From positions 7,812-71,811 of the forward strand of contig CAZFCC010000010.1 of NCBI GenBank assembly GCA_964517635.1: DNA of 64,000 nucleotides, written 5' to 3'. Below the pieces are notes generated by a model. The model saw nothing but the letters and a program-made list of their open reading frames with translations. It ran no database searches and was not told the DNA's origin. The translations under genes and the position numbers were made by a program. Of this stretch, positions 23,450 through 35,391 are shown in pieces. The DNA comes from an uncultured Desulfovibrio sp. (lineage in GTDB: Bacteria > Desulfobacterota > Desulfovibrionia > Desulfovibrionales > Desulfovibrionaceae). Within the stretch, counting starts at the first letter, position 1. Each line of letters starts with the position of its first letter.

Positions 23450-24421
23450 ATGCCAAGCAACAACACTTCCGGCGGGGTGGCGCAAGCCGCCCCGTCATCC
23501 ACAACTTTGCCCGTCATCTGCCTCGCCGGGCCCACAGGTTCGGGTAAAACGGCCGCGGCCTTGGCCATGGCCGACGCCCTTGGCGGCGAAGTCATCAATG
23601 CGGACTCGCGCCAGGTTTACGCCGACTTTCCACGCATCACGGCCCAGCCTTCTCCCGAAGAGCTGGCCTGCTGTCCGCACCATCTTTATGGCTTCTTGCC
23701 CACAGCGCAAAAAATCAGCGCCGGCCGCTGGGCTGCGCAAGCCCAGGAAACAGCACGACAAATCCTTTCACGCGGTAAAATACCGCTGCTGGTAGGCGGC
23801 ACGGGCCTTTACTTTCAGACCCTCCTGCACGGCACAGCCGAAATCCCCCCGGTGGATCCGGCCCTCACCGCAGCCCTCACCGCGCGCCTGGAAGGCGCCG
23901 GATCGCAGGCCATGCACGCCGAGCTGGCCCGCGTGGACTCGGACTACGCTGCCCGCATACATCCCAATGACCGGCAACGCATCGTGCGCGCTCTTGAAGT
24001 ACATGAGGCCACGGGCAAAGCCTTTAGCTGGTGGCACAAACACGCCATGAGCCCGCCGCTCTGTAGCGGGCCCCTGCTTGTGCTTGATGCTCCCCTGCCC
24101 TGGCTGGAGCCGCGCCTTGCCCGGCGCCTGGACATGATGCTCGCGTCTGGCGCCATGGACGAAGCCGCCGCTGCCCTTGAAATTTGTGATGACGACAATG
24201 CCCCCGGCTGGACGGGCATCGGCTGTGCGGAGGCCCTCGCCTTTCTGCGGGGCCGCATGAGTTTTGATGCCTGCCGCGACCTCTGGCTGCGCAACACGCG
24301 GGCCTACGCCAAGCGCCAGCTCACCTGGTTTCGTGCGCGGCCCGAGGCCGTGTGGCTGCCCCCCGATGACGTGGACGCCGTGGTCAAAGCGGCGGGGATG
24401 CGCCTGGCAGCGGGGGTATGA
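23450..24421 (+). CDS. miaA: tRNA dimethylallyltransferase
   Basis: GPTGSGKT, INADSRQVY, VGGTGLY, HPNDRQRIVRALEV and YAKRQLTWF. Confidence 0.96.
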   Translation: MPSNNTSGGVAQAAPSSTTLPVICLAGPTGSGKTAAALAMADALGGEVINADSRQVYADFPRITAQPSPEELACCPHHLYGFLPTAQKISAGRWAAQAQETARQILSRGKIPLLVGGTGLYFQTLLHGTAEIPPVDPALTAALTARLEGAGSQAMHAELARVDSDYAARIHPNDRQRIVRALEVHEATGKAFSWWHKHAMSPPLCSGPLLVLDAPLPWLEPRLARRLDMMLASGAMDEAAAALEICDDDNAPGWTGIGCAEALAFLRGRMSFDACRDLWLRNTRAYAKRQLTWFRARPEAVWLPPDDVDAVVKAAGMRLAAGV

Positions 24422-25030
24422 CGCCTGAACGGCGGGGGTGTGTAGCCTGCGCGGCAGGGATGCGCCTGCGCGGCAGGGATGCGCCTGCGCGGCGGGGATG
24501 CGCCTGCGCGGCGGGGATGCGCCTGCGCGGCGGGGATGCGCCTGCCAGCGGGGATGCGCCTGCCAGCGGGGGGGATTGCGCGACGCGCAGGGATGAGAAA
24601 AGGGCTTGTCCTTTGGGAAGAGATTTTTGTGCCCGGCGGGCACGAAGGCTTTTTCTTTGTATGTTATTTTGGCCGCCTGCGCGGCGCGCCGCAGAAAGAA
24701 CGTTTGTCCTTCGATAAGGGAAGTGAGTGCCCTGCGGGCACGAGGGCTTGTTTTTTAATTTAGTTTAGGCCGCCTGCGCGGCGGGCGGCAGACGGGGGCC
24801 TGTTAGGGGCTGCCGCCCCTCCGAGGCCCCCTCTGCACTCCCCCCGGACGACCCCGCTGGGCTTTCCATATTTCACCAACCCTCAAGGCCCATCTGGCCT
24901 CACTCCGGCCAATCCTCCTGGGCTTTCCAACTACCGCCAATCCCCGAGGGCTGCGCGGCCTCTGCTGCGGGAGCTTCCCTCGCTGCGCTCGGGTGATCTC
25001 CCTGCGCGCCGCGCAATGCCATCCACGAAT
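24390..25030 (-). repeat. Long modular element, family B copy 1, with a 19-bp tandem tail (GCGGCRGGGATGCGCCTGC)
   Basis: Reverse complement aligns with 25524-25915 and 33985-34360; five full tail units at 24451-24545 plus degenerate ones. Confidence 0.85.
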
Positions 25031-25525
25031 GGAGCTTTGATCGCCTGCTGCACAAAGCAAAGATCATCAGGCTATTTCATGCAATGCCGCCCACGAGCAA
25101 GTCTTGATCGGCTGCTGCACAAGACAAAGATCATCAGGCTATTTCATGCAATGCCATCCGCAAGCAAATCTTGATCGGCAACTGCCCAAATCGACGGTCA
25201 TCAGGCTATTCGGTGCAATACTTTCAAGCAGGCGACGCCCAAAATCTTTTGGGCAAGGAGAAAGCAAGCCATGGTGCAATGCACCCAAGCAGGCGATTCC
25301 CTCACAGCTTTTAAGCAAAGAGAACACAAACGATAATACAATGCCCTTCAAGCAGACAAACGCCCCAGAGCTTTTGGACAGAGAAGAAGTATCCGAAGTC
25401 CTGATGCCCCTCAAACGGGCGACGCCCCAGAGCTTTTGGGCAGAGATGAAACAGCCAAAGCCCTCATGCCCTCAAGCAGGCGACTCCCCAGAGCTTTGGT
25501 GCAAGGAGAAAGCAAACGATGGTAT
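25013..25525. repeat. Degenerate 61-68 bp tandem arrays (3 x ~67 bp plus 5 x ~62 bp)
   Basis: Units start at about 25013, 25081, 25148, 25215, 25276, 25338, 25401 and 25462. Confidence 0.75.
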
Positions 25526-25915
25526 TGCGCGGCGCGCAGGGAGATCACCCGAGCGCAGGGAGATCACCCGAGCGCAGCGAGGGAAGCTCCCGCAGCAGAG
25601 GCCGCGCAGCCCTCGCAGGCTGGCGGAAACTGGAAAGCCCAAGGGGGGTGCTTCGGGGGGGATGCAAGGGGGGCCGAGAAGGGGGCGCAGCCCCATAACC
25701 GGCCCCGCCTTGCCGCCCGCCGCGCAGGCGGCCAAAACAAAGAGCAAAGAAAAAGCCCCGTGCCCGCAGGGCACAGAAATCTCTTCCCAAAGGGCAAGCC
25801 CTTTCCCCTTCCCATCATTGCTCGCCGCGCAGGCGTCTCCCCCCGCCGGTAGGCGCAATCCCCCCGCCGATCAGGCGTCTCCCCTCGCCGATCAGGCGTC
25901 TACCCCCGCCCCGTA
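25524..25915 (+). repeat. Long modular element, family B copy 2 (inverted relative to copy 1)
   Basis: ttgcgcggcgcgcagggagatcacccga...ggaaagccc...gcaggcggcc...gtgcccgcagggcac core with a caggcgtctcccc tail. Confidence 0.85.
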
Positions 25916-25926
25916 AGCGGCCCCAC

Positions 25927-26565
25927 TCACTTGTTCAGGGTAAGAAACTCGTGCTCGTCAGGATCGTAATATTCAATTTCGCCAGACTCGATGTGGTAGA
26001 GCCAGCCGTGAACATGGAGCGTGCCTTTATTTACCTTGCGCCGCACATAGGGATAGGTGAGCAAATTTTCGAGCTGGAAAATGATGGAAAGCTTTTCGGT
26101 CAAGCGCAGAAGCTTTTCTTGATCGGCATTCTTGCCCAGGGCCAAGAGGGCAAGATCCTTGGCCTTCTTGCCCAGAGACAACCATTTTTTGGTGTGGATG
26201 AGCTCCTTGCCCTTGATGTCTTTGTACAGCGCCTCAATGGCACCGCAATGGGTATGTCCGCAGATAATTATTTCTGAAATATTCAATGTAGTTACGGCGT
26301 ATTCGATACCGGAAGCCGTGGCGTGATAATCTTCGTCGGGCTTATAGGGGGCCACAAAGTTGCCCACATTGCGCAAGACGAAAAGCTGCCCTGGAGGCGC
26401 ATTGGTTATGAGAGAAGGAATAACCCGGGAGTCGGCGCAGCCGATAAAAAGCGCCTTGGGGTGCTGCCCGCTGCTGACCAGATCTAAAAGCTGGGATTCA
26501 TTTTTTTTGAAATAGTTTTTCTGGAACAGCTCGTTGCCCTGTAACAGGCTTTCAACACTCTTCAT
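25927..26565 (-). CDS. can: Beta-class carbonic anhydrase
   Basis: GCADSRV, RNVGN and CGHTHCG zinc motifs. Confidence 0.95.
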   Translation of the reverse strand: MKSVESLLQGNELFQKNYFKKNESQLLDLVSSGQHPKALFIGCADSRVIPSLITNAPPGQLFVLRNVGNFVAPYKPDEDYHATASGIEYAVTTLNISEIIICGHTHCGAIEALYKDIKGKELIHTKKWLSLGKKAKDLALLALGKNADQEKLLRLTEKLSIIFQLENLLTYPYVRRKVNKGTLHVHGWLYHIESGEIEYYDPDEHEFLTLNK

Positions 26566-26918
26566 CAACGATCCTCCGTTGGGGTTATGCAGCCCTTCAT
26601 TACAACCCTTTAGTACAGCCATTCAGGCGGCAGGCGCACCCCAGGATACCGTCCTCTGCGGAAAGACGGCACAGCCTGAAAAGGGGGCGCATTCCCCGGC
26701 AAAACCGGGGTATTTCACGCTGCTTCCATATCACCTTGGCACGTAGAGCATCTTTATGCGCAGGTCAAGCGCAAAGCACACTCATGCCCTCTTTGGGACA
26801 AAATTCGTAAAAAAAAATTATTTTTGTCAATCCGCGCCGGGCCATGTATCCATCGTGCACAACGTAAGACAACAAATAAAAAGAATGGCGCAAAACGCCA
26901 AAATAAAAACTTCCTTTT

Positions 26919-31920: not shown

Positions 31921-32016
31921 TACTTTGTGGGGTGATTTGTGGGGTGATTTGTGGGGGAGGGCCCCTTTTGCAAAAGGGTCGCCTCCCCCACACCCCCACC
32001 CCCTAAAACCTTTATT
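31921..32016 (-). repeat. REP-like element, family A copy 5
   Basis: Hairpin preceded by two tttgtggggtga units. Confidence 0.85.
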
Positions 32017-32259: not shown

Positions 32260-33480
32260 GCCTGCTTCCACCCCGCCACAAACCCCGTACCAAACAATCT
32301 GTCGATACAATTGGGGCGAAGTATCCCCTTCTGTGCTGAAAAGCAAAATACGGGAAGCTGCGTCCAGCCTCAGGGCCTGACGCACTTCCTGCATCTGCGG
32401 ATTCTTCATGATGTGCTCAAGAGCTCCCAGAGGGGCCGCGCCCGATTCGCCGCTGCATACGGGGCTGTCGCCCGGCAGGGGCGCGGCAAGAATGCGCATG
32501 CCGTTGGCAGCCACCACATCGTGGCAAGACAAAGCGCCCGCAGCCCTATCGCGCAAAAGGGGCCAGCACAGGCTGCTGGGCTCACCACAGGCAAGCCCGG
32601 CCATGATGGTGCGCATATGGCCGCTGACTGCGCGCGGGGCGCCATCGCCAGCCACAAAAGACCGGTAAAAACAGTCCGCTGCATGCGGCTCCACAGTAAT
32701 AACCTGTGGCCCGTTATCGCCCCAAACGGCGGCAAAATAACCAAGCACAGCAGCTGCAAAAGAACCCACCCCGGCCTGAAGAAAAATATGCGTCGGCGCT
32801 TGCAAACCGCAGTGGCGCCATTGCTCATCCGCTTCCAGAGCCAGGGTTGTATAGCCTTGCATAATCCAGAGCGGCATTTCCTCATAGCCGTCCCAGGCCG
32901 TGTCCTGCACAAGCACGCCACCAGTCTCGTGCGCGTGCTGCCTGGCCAGACGCACGGTATCGTCATAATTAAGGTCGGTTATGGTGCACTGCGCCCCGGT
33001 CTTGCGGATGTTTTCAGCCCTGACCGGCGCGGAACCAGCGGGCATGAAGACCGCAGCCCCCATGCCAAGTTGCTGGGCTGTCCAGGCAACACCCCGGCCG
33101 TGGTTACCGTCCGTGGCTGTAACCAGAGTGAGTTTTCCCAACTTTTCACGCACTTCGGCAGAACGCAGCAATTGCGGGCTCACCTGGCTCATGGGCATAT
33201 CAAGCTGCCCGGCCAGATAGCGCGCCACAGCATAAGAACCGCCCAAAACTTTGAAAGCATTGAGGCCAAAGCGCTGCGACTCGTCCTTTACCAGAATTTC
33301 GCCAAGCCCCAGATCATGCGCAAGATTTTTCAGCCGCACGAGCGGCGTGGGCGCATATTGCTCAAAGCCCTGATGAAAAGCGCGGGCAACGCGGGCAACT
33401 TCCGGCCCATAGGCCGCAACATCCGCCCCGTGGGCAGCGCCTGTGCGCAGGCTGTTGGGACAATAGCTGATGGTACTCAC
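32257..33480 (-). CDS. dpaL: Diaminopropionate ammonia-lyase (PLP)
   Basis: YAPTPL, KDESQRFGLNAFKVLGG, ATDGNHGRG, QAGVGS, MAGLACGEP and GESGA; GTG start after AGGAG. Confidence 0.92.
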   Translation of the reverse strand: MSTISYCPNSLRTGAAHGADVAAYGPEVARVARAFHQGFEQYAPTPLVRLKNLAHDLGLGEILVKDESQRFGLNAFKVLGGSYAVARYLAGQLDMPMSQVSPQLLRSAEVREKLGKLTLVTATDGNHGRGVAWTAQQLGMGAAVFMPAGSAPVRAENIRKTGAQCTITDLNYDDTVRLARQHAHETGGVLVQDTAWDGYEEMPLWIMQGYTTLALEADEQWRHCGLQAPTHIFLQAGVGSFAAAVLGYFAAVWGDNGPQVITVEPHAADCFYRSFVAGDGAPRAVSGHMRTIMAGLACGEPSSLCWPLLRDRAAGALSCHDVVAANGMRILAAPLPGDSPVCSGESGAAPLGALEHIMKNPQMQEVRQALRLDAASRILLFSTEGDTSPQLYRQIVWYGVCGGVEAG

Positions 33481-33505
33481 GATTGCTCTCCTGTAATGAT
33501 TGGTA

Positions 33506-33606
33506 AATGCTTTGTGGGGGAGGGCCTGATGCTTTGCTTTGTGGGGGAGGGCCCCTTTTGTAAAAGGGTCGCCTCCCCCACACCACACCCCCCAAAACTT
33601 TTATTC
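33506..33606 (-). repeat. REP-like element, family A copy 6 (upstream of dpaL)
   Basis: Hairpin plus a duplicated half-unit, 26 nt from the dpaL start. Confidence 0.85.
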
Positions 33607-33749
33607 CTGTTGCAAACGGCTACAGGAGTTCACATGCTCTTGGGAGGGTTTGGCCTTTGGGGAAAACTTTTACGCACTGCGGCCGAGCCACTATTAATGA
33701 TACCCAGCGGCCCAGAAATTTTCATTCAAAACAAAAGTGCCGGATGGCC

Positions 33750-34360
33750 CGATGACCGCAAATCTGGCAACAGCCGATCGAAGCCGAATTCACCGCTGGT
33801 TCCAGACGACCTGATGGCCAAAGCCCCAGCAACAGCCGATCAAAGAAGCCCCACGTATGCATTGCTCCAGACAAACCGATGATCGCGCGTTGACCAACAG
33901 CCGATCAAGGCCGGTCTGATGCATTGCGCCGAACAAGCTGATGACCGCCATTCTGGCAACAGTCGATCAAAGCCAATGCCTTGGATGGCGTTGCGCGGCG
34001 CGCAGGGAGATCACCCGACCGAAGGGAGGGAAGCTCCCGGAGCAAAAGCCGTGCAGCCCTCGCAGGCTGACGGAAGTTGGAAAGCCCAACAGTGTTGGCC
34101 GGAGTGAGAGCAGATGGGGATCAGCCGGTTGGCGGAAGATGGAAAGCCTAGCGGGGTCGTCCGGGGGGAGTGCAGAGGGGGCCTCGGAGGGGCGGCAGCC
34201 CCTAACAGGCCCCCTCGCCGCCCGCCGCGCAGGCGGCCCAAACTCAATTAAAAAAGAAGCCCCCGTGCCCGCAGGGCACACATTCCCTTTCTCGAAGGAC
34301 AAGCCCTTCTTCTTCCCCCGCCGCAAAGGCGCACTCCCCGCCGCAAAGGCGCACCCCCCT
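33750..34360 (+). repeat. Long modular element, family B copy 3, with upstream ~62-bp array and tail
   Basis: Core 33985-34310 matches copies 1 and 2; four degenerate ctgatga..caacagccgatcaa units upstream; two cgcaaaggcgca tail units. Confidence 0.85.
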
Positions 34361-34362
34361 AT

Positions 34363-35391
34363 TCAGTTCGAATTGGCTGTGCGCACAAAAACATTATAAG
34401 CCTGTCGACTTTTCTGCGCGGCTTGATTCAGCTCCTGCCGCAACGGGCTGTAAAAACCCTGATCCAGCCCCCGAACCACAAGCGCCTCATAGCGAGCAAC
34501 CTGCTTAAGAAAATCACGATACCCCCGTTCCACCTCGGGAGCAGCCGCGAATGGCGGCTGTCCGGCCCGGCGCAAGCCAGCCTCAAGCTTGCCCCGCACC
34601 TGCTCAAGGGCCTGACGGTCGGGCGTCTGGGCTTTCAACAATTCCGCGGTATTGGAGTACAGACTAAAAATGTTTTTGGCTTCCAGAATCTGCCGCCGGA
34701 GCGGATGCCCGTACAACAGGGCTTCTTCAGCTTTGACGGCCCGCCCTTCCACAAGGGCCAGATAGCTGTTGCGGGCAGTCATAAAACGCTCATGCGCCTT
34801 TTCCAGGCTGGCTGCCAGGGCGCGGCCTTTTACGCCATCATCGCGAACCTCGTCATCCCGCACATAGCGCCCCAGCGCCGCGTAGTCGGCCCGCATGCTC
34901 TGGATGCTCTTTTCCATATCGCCCACCCACTGGGCCAGTGCCGCCACTTCATCCTCGCCGAACATGGCCGCAGTAGCCGCCAGGCGGCGCGCAAGCACCT
35001 TGCCATCGCCGGTGGGCGCAGGGCGCGGGGCCAGCGTCCATTGGCGCAAATAATGGTTCACGTGTTCCATCATGACTTCGGCCTGAACAAAATAGGGCTC
35101 AGCCAGGGTGGCGGCGGCCACATTATAGAAAGCCACAAGCGCATCGGCCTTTTCAAGCTCTTCCTGCGTGGGGGGCGGCCCCTGAACCTGTTCTTCATAG
35201 GGCGCACGATCCTGCGGGGCGCTGTTAGCCGCGCCAGCCGCGTCCGGCTTGCCTTGAGCCTGGTCAGTGTTCTGCGTTTGGCCCGCCTGCTCCTTGCCTG
35301 TGGAAGAGGCGCCTTCATTGCCGCCGGAATCGCAAGCCACAAGAAACAGGGCCACAAGACAGACGGACAGTATAGAGAGTCTTTTTTTCAT
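34363..35391 (-). CDS. Putative lipoprotein (helical; YiiG/DUF3829-like)
   Basis: Lipobox LVAC, low-complexity linker, helical body; family assignment tentative. Confidence 0.7.
   Translation of the reverse strand: MKKRLSILSVCLVALFLVACDSGGNEGASSTGKEQAGQTQNTDQAQGKPDAAGAANSAPQDRAPYEEQVQGPPPTQEELEKADALVAFYNVAAATLAEPYFVQAEVMMEHVNHYLRQWTLAPRPAPTGDGKVLARRLAATAAMFGEDEVAALAQWVGDMEKSIQSMRADYAALGRYVRDDEVRDDGVKGRALAASLEKAHERFMTARNSYLALVEGRAVKAEEALLYGHPLRRQILEAKNIFSLYSNTAELLKAQTPDRQALEQVRGKLEAGLRRAGQPPFAAAPEVERGYRDFLKQVARYEALVVRGLDQGFYSPLRQELNQAAQKSRQAYNVFVRTANSN

Follow-up and report, generated by a model that had tools for sequence, protein, structure and literature searches.

The BIMEs of Escherichia coli and further enterobacteria, which are built from REP units, have been proposed to act in transcription termination, in protection of mRNA 3' ends and in protein binding (summarized in PMC3733652). 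The Correia or NEMIS elements of Neisseria bear terminal inverted repeats, are cotranscribed with neighbouring genes, contain regulatory signals and may supply stop codons; their insertion duplicates a TA target, and they are found in either orientation. In Streptococcus pneumoniae, BOX elements are composed of boxA-boxB(n)-boxC (Croucher et al. 2011, PMC3049150). CGTC-tagged REPs and SMAG-type stem-loop repeats combine stems of 8-9 bp and loops of 4-5 nt with a CCA tail and a CGTC tag that is terminal and unpaired (Di Nocera et al. 2013, PMC3733652).

In this study, we describe a modular, non-coding repeat family in Desulfovibrio that resembles each of these systems in part. Like BIMEs, it is an extragenic mosaic of short motifs and small GC-rich palindromes with a variable number of units (summarized in PMC3733652), its parts follow a regular order, and it is placed after gene ends and between convergent genes. 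Unlike BIMEs, which have no similar sequence, it carries its hairpins as direct tandem units and lacks the alternation of inverted Y and Z REPs of enterobacteria; the Desulfovibrio modules are also much longer (50-90 bp), one of them is terminator-like, the orientation is strict and no RAYT was found. We regard it as a putative functional analogue of BIMEs and not as a member. With BOX, the repeat shares a modular non-coding structure, a copy number near one hundred, an internal module that varies in number, the lack of its own transposase, and stable secondary structures and influences on adjacent genes that are predicted, but sequence and host are unrelated and the Desulfovibrio repeat amplifies every module, abuts stop codons and is polar. 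Abundant small palindromes that form head-to-head dimers or clusters, sometimes within gene ends, with no dedicated transposase are common to SMAG elements and to our repeat, in which, however, the tail stems measure 4 bp and are one part of a composite. Miniature size, terminal inverted repeats, supply of stop codons, and predicted cotranscription and regulatory signals recall the Correia elements, from which the repeat differs by its strong polarity and by showing no duplication.

Three copies lie in the window, the whole stretch of 64,000 nucleotides that we analysed (Table 1). An earlier note on this DNA had described three copies with differing module numbers and variable tails, all of which we reproduced with BLAST, nhmmer and TRF. 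Copies 1 and 3 aligned over 353 bp with 85% identity (BLAST, E=1e-108), and nhmmer read the module strings as H-M-M-P-T-T in copy 1, H-H-M-T in copy 2 and H-M-M-P-T in copy 3. The M module (marked by tggaaagccc) is present 2, 1 and 2 times in copies 1, 2 and 3, and the T module (gtgccc..gggcac) is doubled in copy 1. Copy 2 represents a second, shorter subfamily with M'-P' replacing M-M-P. Each tail unit of copy 1 is a mini-hairpin of the form CGCC-N5-GGCG, and the core of this copy is bracketed by the segments 24575-24593 and 25002-25020, which resemble 19-bp terminal inverted repeats. The left boundary of copy 3 is sharp, with 16 BLAST hits starting at 33984. The element exceeds its earlier description in that degenerate tandem units of 62-67 bp (S units) adjoin every head; the central S array is common to the heads of copies 1 and 2, and the start of the S unit, GATGGYRTTGC, resembles the head.

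Table 1. Features of the three repeat copies in the window.
Feature	Position	Strand	Description
Copy 1	24389-25023		+ strand reads tail -> head
Copy 1 tail	24389-24571	+	19 bp x 9.5 (TRF); unit GCGGCGGGGATGCGCCTGC
Copy 1 inverted head-start motif	24575-24593	+	ATTGCGCGACGCGCAGGGA; repeat search and genome-wide motif scan
Copy 1 T modules (two)	24600-24689, 24700-24787	+	nhmmer
Copy 1 terminator-like hits	24624-24648, 24734-24751	+	terminator scan
Copy 1 P module	24794-24844	+	two-tier GC hairpin GGGGGCCT..GGGGC-loop-GCCCC..AGGCCCCC
Copy 1 M modules (two; gggctttcca unit)	24830-24940	+	C-rich, G-poor in miaA sense
Copy 1 H (head) module	24946-25023	+	nhmmer
Central S-unit array	25037-25520		degenerate 62-67 bp tandem units (TRF, nhmmer S model)
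Copy 2	25518-25910		+ strand reads head -> tail
Copy 2 H module	25518-25614	-	nhmmer
Doubled 19-bp piece in copy 2 H	25534-25581		GCGCAGGGAGATCACCCGA (TRF)
Copy 2 M' and P' short-subfamily variants	25620-25706	-	
Copy 2 P'	25668-25706	-	GGGGGGCCGAGAAGGGGGCGCAGCCCCATAACCGGCCCC
Copy 2 T module	25714-25803	-	nhmmer; carbonic anhydrase gene sense
Copy 2 terminator-like hit	25778-25756	-	terminator scan
Copy 2 tail	25823-25910	-	21 bp x 4.2 (TRF)
S-type tandem units (four) beside copy 3 head	33730-33980		62-65 bp; repeat search
Copy 3	33984-34359		+ strand reads head -> tail
Copy 3 core	33984-34309	-	H 33984-34061, M 34062-34123, M 34124-34178, P 34164-34216, T 34220-34308
Copy 3 terminator-like hit	34276-34261	-	terminator scan
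Copy 3 tail	34315-34359	-	20 bp x 2.2 (TRF)

The general layout is S-array, H, M(1-2), P, T(1-4), tail(n), with a composite length of 330-640 bp. This order was kept in about 20 complete arms with varying module numbers, and tandem amplification affects all types of module. The tail consists of 19-21 bp units with 4-bp stems, repeated directly one after another. An inverted copy of the first 19 nt of the head (ATTGCGCGGCGCGCAGGGA) follows T closely in about 28 copies and is oriented as expected in every one of them, and the tail is located outside these inverted repeats. On the other side, the flank outside the head is constant and consists of GATGGC plus an S unit; the head-flanking units look to be of two kinds, 'A' (..CCGATCAAAGC..) and 'B' (..CCCCAGAGCTTTTGGGCAAGGAGAAAGCAAAC), which may be a single repeat read on opposite strands; our S model matched B only.

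We next consider the size and distribution of the family. BLAST searches of the 2.76 Mb Desulfovibrio draft genome (G000) assigned ~25 kb in about 80-85 regions to the family, corresponding to an estimated 60-100 copies, and genome-wide nhmmer searches counted 46 H, 41 M, 26 P and 107 T modules, besides the P' variants and the tail arrays. The metagenome depth of H and P was ~60x the single-copy depth. Contig ends hold 48 of the about 70-85 repeat loci, and the family causes most contig breaks in this assembly. The family is restricted to part of the genus Desulfovibrio, being present in 31 of 111 species (about a quarter) and absent from the other 80. Plasmids and viral contigs had no match, and a plasmid or phage origin was rejected on this ground. 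Full-text literature searches found no description of such a repeat in Desulfovibrio. The repeat adds a family to a class of bacterial repeats already represented by BIME and BOX and does not amount to a novel type of system.

The copies in the window are lineage-specific insertions at gene 3' ends. For each of them, one or more close relatives have no copy at the corresponding site, which identifies all three as insertions. The miaA-can region of the relative G021 contains no copy and has retained a native hairpin terminator after can, the corresponding region of G018 has a partial copy 1 only, and the site of copy 3 is empty in G018, G021, G013 and G002. The spacer between the lipoprotein gene and dpaL measures ~40 nt in G018 versus ~865 nt in G000. 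A point against a terminator role is that copy 3 places a predicted terminator within a gene set that is an operon in G018; the tails that are directed toward a gene start (19 of 70, see below) are another.

Copies 1 and 2 form a head-to-head pair, for which the earlier note had suggested a large cruciform or a recombination substrate. This was not borne out: the arms belong to different subfamilies, are only partly complementary and lie ~500 bp apart, and four independent metagenomes contained the same unique segments at 99-100% identity, with apparent joints falling within repeats and no rearranged form of the pair. The arrangement [T..H]n[H..T]n between convergent genes was also present in G021, G018, G096 and metagenome contigs. 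The pair is no fixed unit; heads at other loci flank ordinary genes (tilS, msrAB).

At all three sites the tail lies at the stop codon of a gene pointing into the element, as first noticed from the sequence. The stop codon of miaA (24419-24421) lies within the tail array of copy 1, which overlaps the last 33 nt of the gene, so that tail units make up roughly its last 10 codons. The stop of the carbonic anhydrase gene (25927-25929) is 16 nt from the tail of copy 2, and the gene is here without the final 5 codons present in G021 and G018; the stop of the lipoprotein gene (34363-34365) is 3 nt from the tail of copy 3. Pfam verified miaA (IPPT) and carbonic anhydrase (Pro_CA), and a signal peptide with a lipobox is present in the translation of the third. 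Across the genome, the tail side is directed toward a gene stop in 51 of 70 cases and toward a gene start in 19, about 20 of 38 close cases have no more than 15 nt between the stop codon and the beginning of the tail, and 9 of 19 internal loci are situated between convergent genes compared with a baseline of 13% (p=3e-4); these context statistics rest on few complete loci, 48 being cut by contig ends, and on a home-made gene caller. At least four genes have their stop codon inside a tail unit, and other tails begin right after the U-tract of a native terminator. Because the repeats lie in sense orientation, two copies between convergent genes have their heads toward each other. The direction of replication does not account for the polarity, since both orientations occur within 1 kb in the arms of a pair. 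The possibility that the tail provides a stop codon in every frame was not supported, as the worst frame stayed open for a median of ~130 nt in a scan with edge errors at contig starts.

The polarity extends to the T module. A hairpin followed by a U-tract was fitted by 65 of 87 T modules in the sense direction, by none of the 87 in reverse and by 5 of 87 shuffled sequences, and the terminator scan was positive in all three copies of the window. In copy 1, the hairpin GTGCCC-N3-GGGCAC is lengthened by G-U pairs and followed by a U-tract, making it terminator-like in the sense of miaA. The T stem extension generally uses T-G pairs, which form on the sense strand only. Against a terminator, the stem relies on weak G-U pairs, and variation at stem positions 29/43 and 30/42 was uncompensated. 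T is likely to be an intrinsic (Rho-independent) terminator that would work in the sense direction only.

We also compared the conservation of the modules. Among the copies in G000, identity was 99.6% for P, 93% for H, 78% for T and 75% for M. Across species, H was about 90% identical and the P stems were invariant with a varying apical loop, although cross-species P identity is inflated because many of the relatives' loci were picked by an exact P match. The hairpin stems are conserved as sequence, generally without compensatory changes. Two compensatory pairs were seen in all, one in H (G-C in 46 copies, C-G in 20) and one between P and P' (T-A versus G-C), and they may be single events. With so little variation in H and P, there is next to no covariation. 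The earlier proposal of a structured 3' RNA thus holds for the terminator-like T hairpin with its U-tract in the sense of the upstream gene and is not supported for the element as a whole.

The near-invariance of H and P next to much more variable modules would also be expected if H, P and the S units were sites for a nucleoid protein, gyrase or an IHF-like factor acting at the supercoils between convergent transcription units, a role that has been proposed for the BIMEs of E. coli, with the hairpins mattering as DNA. The enrichment between convergent genes, the periodic units beside every head and the conservation of stems as sequence agree with such a protein-binding array. However, these are candidate sites, and the strict strand polarity of T (65 versus 0) and the G-U extension of its stem would be left unexplained. 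We consider this reading improbable as the main explanation; it is compatible with the terminator reading and not exclusive of it.

Even less probable, in our estimate, is that P-M-H forms small RNA genes or 3'UTR-derived regulatory RNAs acting in trans. The RNA sets covered were wastewater, sludge, biofilm and aquatic metatranscriptomes, as contigs, and short fragments of P and H were present in four wastewater libraries at a depth above the flanking genes; these fragments are ambiguous, as DNA carry-over or a copy-number effect is possible, and their excess depth equals that of a 60-copy DNA repeat. The + strand of copy 3 folded with z = -3.3, and the compensatory pairs in H and between P and P' also fit an RNA, but the sense strand folded no better than shuffles (z = -1.5), no promoter-like site was found in or beside copies 1 and 2, and an RNA that acts in trans would not usually vary in its number of modules. 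Rfam gave no match at the gathering score or at E<=1 and ARAGORN found nothing, and a known RNA family or a tRNA-derived element was rejected. Coding potential was likewise rejected: seven internal ORFs had no Pfam match, in line with the earlier statement that the element contains no credible ORF.

The earlier note had called the element BIME/REPIN-like, and we find that it is BIME-like (mosaic, non-coding, non-randomly oriented and with no tested transposase alongside) and not REPIN-like. A REPIN or REP family mobilised by a RAYT (a Y1 HUH transposase) is suggested by the arrays of small GC-rich hairpins, the head-to-head pairs and the extragenic position near gene ends. PF01797, which represents Y1/RAYT, had no match in G000 or in the element-rich relatives G021, G018 and G013, in a search that detected the control genomes; it was present in G007 (10 matches), in the nearly element-free G020 and in G015, which has diverged copies. 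No RAYT gene flanked by repeats was found, and the repeat has direct tandem units with 4-bp stems instead of inverted doublets of 20-40 bp palindromes or stems of 8-13 bp with a GTAG/CGTC tag (PMC3733652). Mobilisation by RAYT was rejected because PF01797 is absent from the element-rich genomes, and we regard it as the least plausible of the readings, with hardly any chance of being correct.

An ordinary MITE is easier to reconcile with the 19-nt motif, although we still think it unlikely. The repeat would then be a deletion derivative of an IS, with ATTGCGCGGCGCGCAGGGA as 19-bp terminal inverted repeats, moved in trans by a transposase missing from the drafts, and the T module and the polarity would be by-products of selection against harmful insertions. 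The orientation of the inverted motif beyond T, the presence and absence of copies at the same sites between species and the frequent loss of multi-copy IS contigs from draft MAGs all fit. On the other hand, no target-site duplication was seen and no direct repeat flanks the copies, the GATGGC flank of the head is constant, unlike the tail side, the tail lies outside the inverted repeats, and plasmid and viral contigs are free of the repeat. PF01548 and PF01609 were essentially absent from carriers, the exceptions being a PF01609 fragment in G000 that is interrupted by a stop and a single hit to IS110 in G018. IS110 and IS4/IS5 are abundant in the element-free genomes G007 and G002, and partners of these types were rejected for both reasons. 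No full-length parent IS was located beside the H motif in G000, G021 (46 sites), G018 (28 sites), G096, 14 metagenome contigs or complete genomes, in a screen covering PF01797, PF01548 and PF01609 in carriers that are mostly MAGs. Moreover, H and P are conserved in old copies in which T and M have diverged by ~25%, and neutral decay predicts otherwise. Random orientation or an IS origin would have spoken against the earlier reading of the element; the genome-wide copies form a dispersed family with strongly non-random orientation, and no IS partner was found in the element-bearing genomes or loci.

Overall, our sequence analysis suggests that the repeat is probably a non-coding, non-autonomous, BIME/BOX-like mosaic family that lies inserted at gene 3' ends and would supply terminators there. 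Read in the sense of the gene, the stop codon or native terminator is followed by a tail of n mini-hairpins of 19-21 bp, the inverted first 19 nt of the head, one to four terminator-like T modules and the very stable two-tier P hairpin, and then by one or two C-rich M units, the H head and the tandem array of 62-67 bp units. T would act as a Rho-independent terminator for the preceding gene, replacing or backing the native one, and the P hairpin together with the C-rich M might, speculatively, protect the 3' end and serve as a site where Rho is loaded. Only the terminating orientation would be tolerated or favoured by selection, and H and P may owe their near-invariance to recognition, either by a protein or by the mechanism of spread. 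Any role suggested for P, M, H or the S arrays is guesswork.

Alternatively, the repeat could be a 'portable terminator' that spreads by itself and targets the ends of transcription units, inserts tail-first in sense at stop codons or just after native terminators and was domesticated in this Desulfovibrio clade as a multi-layer stop and insulator between convergent genes, with H and P kept by a recognising protein. We give this no better chance than the MITE. If it were true, insertion without a recognisable transposase would imply that the mechanism is encoded by the host or else coupled to transcription or its termination.

The repeat accounts for the fragmentation of drafts and MAGs into dozens of contigs in this Desulfovibrio clade. 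It also calls for caution in annotation, as it gives rise to false ORFs as long as 270 aa and has altered the C-termini of miaA and carbonic anhydrase, and its variable-number modules are usable as strain-typing markers. The family provides a natural example of a repeat that would deliver a terminator to gene ends in a single orientation. The near-invariant H and P hint at a recognising factor, and closed genomes of cultured carriers make the link between repeat spread and termination testable.

The repeats whose tails lie at the ends of miaA, the carbonic anhydrase gene can and a lipoprotein gene (copies 1, 2 and 3) belong to one modular family. Copies 1 and 3 are 85% identical across 353 bp (BLAST, E=1e-108). 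Module maps made with nhmmer models derived from copy 3, together with a sharp pile-up of BLAST hit ends, revealed a regular order: an array of degenerate tandem units (S), a head (H), one or two tggaaagccc/gggctttcca units (M), a two-tier GC hairpin (P), one to four terminator-like hairpins with a U-tract (T), and a tail of n units. The differences between the three copies that an earlier note had listed, by whole modules, are all real according to these maps and TRF, which also found the 19-bp piece doubled in the head of copy 2. A second, shorter subfamily, which includes copy 2, carries M' and P' where the other has M-M-P. Both subfamilies are present in the Desulfovibrio genomes G018 and G021 too and are therefore older than those species.

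Features of the window that relate to the repeat family (modules by nhmmer, tail arrays by TRF)
Feature	Position in window	Composition or setting	Tail array
Copy 1	24389-25023	H-M-M-P-T-T	19 bp x 9.5
Array between copies 1 and 2	25037-25520	degenerate 62-67 bp units	
Copy 2	25518-25910	H-H-M-T, inverted relative to copy 1	21 bp x 4.2
can	25927-26622	beta-carbonic anhydrase	
G-run + hairpin repeat	31921-32007 and 33506-33597	separate repeat family	
Lipoprotein gene-dpaL pair, split	33480-34365	split by copy 3	
Promoter-like site	33725-33697	minus strand, between S units and dpaL	
Copy 3	33984-34359	H-M-M-P-T	20 bp x 2.2

The first 19 nt of H, ATTGCGCGGCGCGCAGGGA, resemble a tail unit and recur inverted just past T in about 28 copies, always in consistent orientation. 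True tail arrays consist of mini-hairpins (CGCC-N5-GGCG) with a period of 19-21 bp and are found only adjoining T; the genome has 34 of them, and shuffled sequence gave 6 loose clusters of the pattern genome-wide. Some tails have longer or different units, for example of about 36 bp (CGCCGTGCAGTGTGTCACAGCGTAGCGCAACCAGCC), or CGCGCCTAGCCATCCCGCC (C19:12414-12620, C37:17555-17700, C14:1051-1250), hence the tail evolves fast via unit replacement. Every head adjoins at least one degenerate unit of 62-67 bp whose start resembles that of the head, and the 'spacer' separating copies 1 and 2 is an array of such units. Runs of N (masked or withheld bases) occur inside two central S arrays (C83:175-420, C2:136260-136420), which were therefore only partly readable. 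A head-to-head pair such as copies 1 and 2 consists of two elements, because heads elsewhere adjoin ordinary genes (tilS, msrAB).

The genome holding the window (83 contigs, 2.76 Mb, 57% G+C) contains about 85 regions of the repeat by BLAST, 25 kb in total, and iterated nhmmer identified 46 H, 41 M, 26 P and 107 T in 80 clusters. Assembly breaks in this genome are mostly due to the family, since 48 loci extend to the edge of a contig. H and P words were present at ~60x depth compared with the single-copy depth of flanking genes in four independent wastewater/bioreactor metagenomes, in which the unique parts of the window locus had 99-100% identity. Single loci in G021 have up to three whole arms (element copies) and eight consecutive T, together about 2.8 kb consisting only of repeat (L042, G021:C16 4073-6850; L065), and local tandem amplification adds to copy number as much as dispersal.

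We found miaA orthologues in 12 relatives and compared the fetched regions. G021 has miaA-can without any copy, with a different, G-run hairpin repeat behind miaA and a native hairpin terminator behind can. In G018 part of copy 1 is present, oriented as in the window genome, and the can site lacks a copy. Only G018, G021 and the window genome have can between miaA and the gene that follows; five more distant species of the genus lack it, and in them miaA goes directly to the gene beyond can (loci L031-L037), so the carbonic anhydrase gene itself is a clade-specific insertion. At the site of copy 3, the lipoprotein gene and dpaL form a tight pair in G018, about 40 nt apart; in the window genome about 865 nt separate the lipoprotein stop codon from the conserved dpaL ribosome-binding site. 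Copy 3 is also absent in G021, G013 and G002. Since each window copy is missing from the corresponding site in at least one relative, all three are lineage-specific insertions, located at gene 3' ends or slightly within them. A promoter-like site, ATGAAA-17-TATCAT, could have restored dpaL transcription after copy 3 split the gene pair, and the true dpaL start is probably GTG at about 33480 rather than 33588. The separate G-run + hairpin family (TTTGTGGGGGAGGGCCCCTTTTGTAAAAGGG..CCCCCACA) adjoins copy 3 upstream of dpaL and, at about 1040-1140 of L031 (G021), occupies the site behind miaA where the window genome has copy 1. Different repeat families alternate at the same gene ends.

The neighbouring genes were identified by PF01715 (miaA), PF00484 (beta-carbonic anhydrase) and a lipobox signal peptide (lipoprotein). 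The miaA stop codon lies inside the copy 1 tail array, the units of which encode the C-terminus AAGMRLAAGV*, and the last tail unit is 16 nt from the stop codon of the carbonic anhydrase gene and 3 nt from that of the lipoprotein gene. The carbonic anhydrase terminates ...LNK*, and the G021 and G018 proteins run five residues further. Genes were called genome-wide with a custom codon-usage caller for this genome, which recovered the known window genes. The tail side points toward a gene 3' end 51 times and toward a 5' end 19 times, and on the head side the nearest gene is always at least about 90-200 bp away. With stop codons aligned, about 20/38 tails start ≤15 nt from the stop, and the TAG or TGA of a tail unit serves as stop codon of at least four genes (miaA and others on C41, C54 and C64). 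Several farther tails begin directly 3' of the U-tract of a native terminator (C31, C13, C3). Nine of the 19 loci wholly inside contigs are between convergent genes, compared with 13% of all intergenic regions (p=3e-4), and one is between divergent genes, compared with 14.5%. Seven of eight single arms in co-directional settings run in the same sense as the upstream gene. The layout 'gene -> [T..H]n [H..T]n <- gene' is also found in G021, G018, the closed genome G096 and metagenome contigs. Since paired arms are inverted within 1 kb, the polarity is explained by transcription direction, not replication direction.

In sense orientation T reads UUUUUGUGCCC-UGC-GGGCACGGGGG-CUUUUUCUUU. A terminator scan predicted sites in copies 1, 2 and 3, always on the strand that encodes the neighbouring gene, and the hairpin + U-tract pattern was present in 65/87 near-complete T in sense, 0/87 in antisense and 5/87 when shuffled. 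The outer stem is built of T-G pairs, which on the opposite strand would give C-A mismatches; this fits an RNA-level, one-directional signal. M, downstream of T, has 44% C and 18% G in the same sense, a composition typical of a Rho loading site, which M may thus provide. The RNA data found were exclusively metatranscriptomes from wastewater, sludge, biofilms or aquatic sites, available as contigs. Four contained short P and H fragments at a depth above flanking genes; these are no evidence of transcription, because carry-over of DNA, with a repeat of 60 copies, would give the same picture.

Within this genome P modules have a mean pairwise identity of 99.6%, H modules of 93%, T modules of 78% and M modules of 75%. 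As modules in the same copies diverged unequally, this argues for module-specific constraint or homogenisation, not neutral decay of dead copies. Cross-species P identity is inflated, many relative loci having been chosen by exact P match. Both P stems are kept in all species, with a variable apical loop (GGCA, GCA, GAA, ATC, ACA). One stem pair is exchanged, T-A to G-C, between P and P', and H shows one G-C/C-G exchange (46 versus 20 copies); we found no covariation beyond these exchanges, and some T stem variants are uncompensated. On the sense strand the whole-element fold does not stand out (z=-1.5); the opposite strand folds with moderate stability (z=-3.3). The element had no match in Rfam even at E≤1 and none with ARAGORN, and its internal ORFs contain no Pfam domains.

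The proposal that the element is REPIN-like was rejected, as PF01797 (Y1/RAYT) is absent in the window genome, G021, G018 and G013; it is present in G007, G015 and G020. PF01548 (IS110) and PF01609 (IS4/IS5) are essentially absent in carriers and plentiful in element-free G007 and G002. These two have about 10 IS4/IS5 copies each, G007 also about 10 IS200, and the four repeat-rich genomes are almost without IS200, IS110 and IS4/IS5 transposase genes; this scarcity could be biological or could reflect IS contigs missing from the MAGs. A MITE is possible but unsupported: the inverted repeats are the only MITE feature seen, and we found neither a target-site duplication nor, at 74 H-motif sites (G021 and G018) or in 14 metagenome contigs, a transposase-sized ORF between inverted heads. 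Plasmid and viral sequences gave no match to the family.

Exact matches to a P word were confined to Desulfovibrio MAGs (sp. MES5, 3M006, STF2_171) and a MAG labelled only 'Proteobacteria bacterium' (OH_PBrB_39). The family is present in 31 of 111 species of the genus, closed genomes included; among 16 genomes representing the order's other families there was no convincing match, and one had two borderline matches (E=8e-4). Copies share 82-90% identity within a genome versus 74-80% between species. Like BIMEs and BOX elements, this is a mosaic, variable-number, extragenic repeat at gene ends without its own transposase, but its sequence is unrelated to theirs, and it lacks the defining features of REP/RAYT systems. 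Our full-text literature search found no description of such a repeat in Desulfovibrio. Overall, it is a new family within an already known, BIME/BOX-like kind of bacterial repeat, with three notable traits: strict sense polarity, a putative terminator of its own, and insertion either at stop codons or within them.
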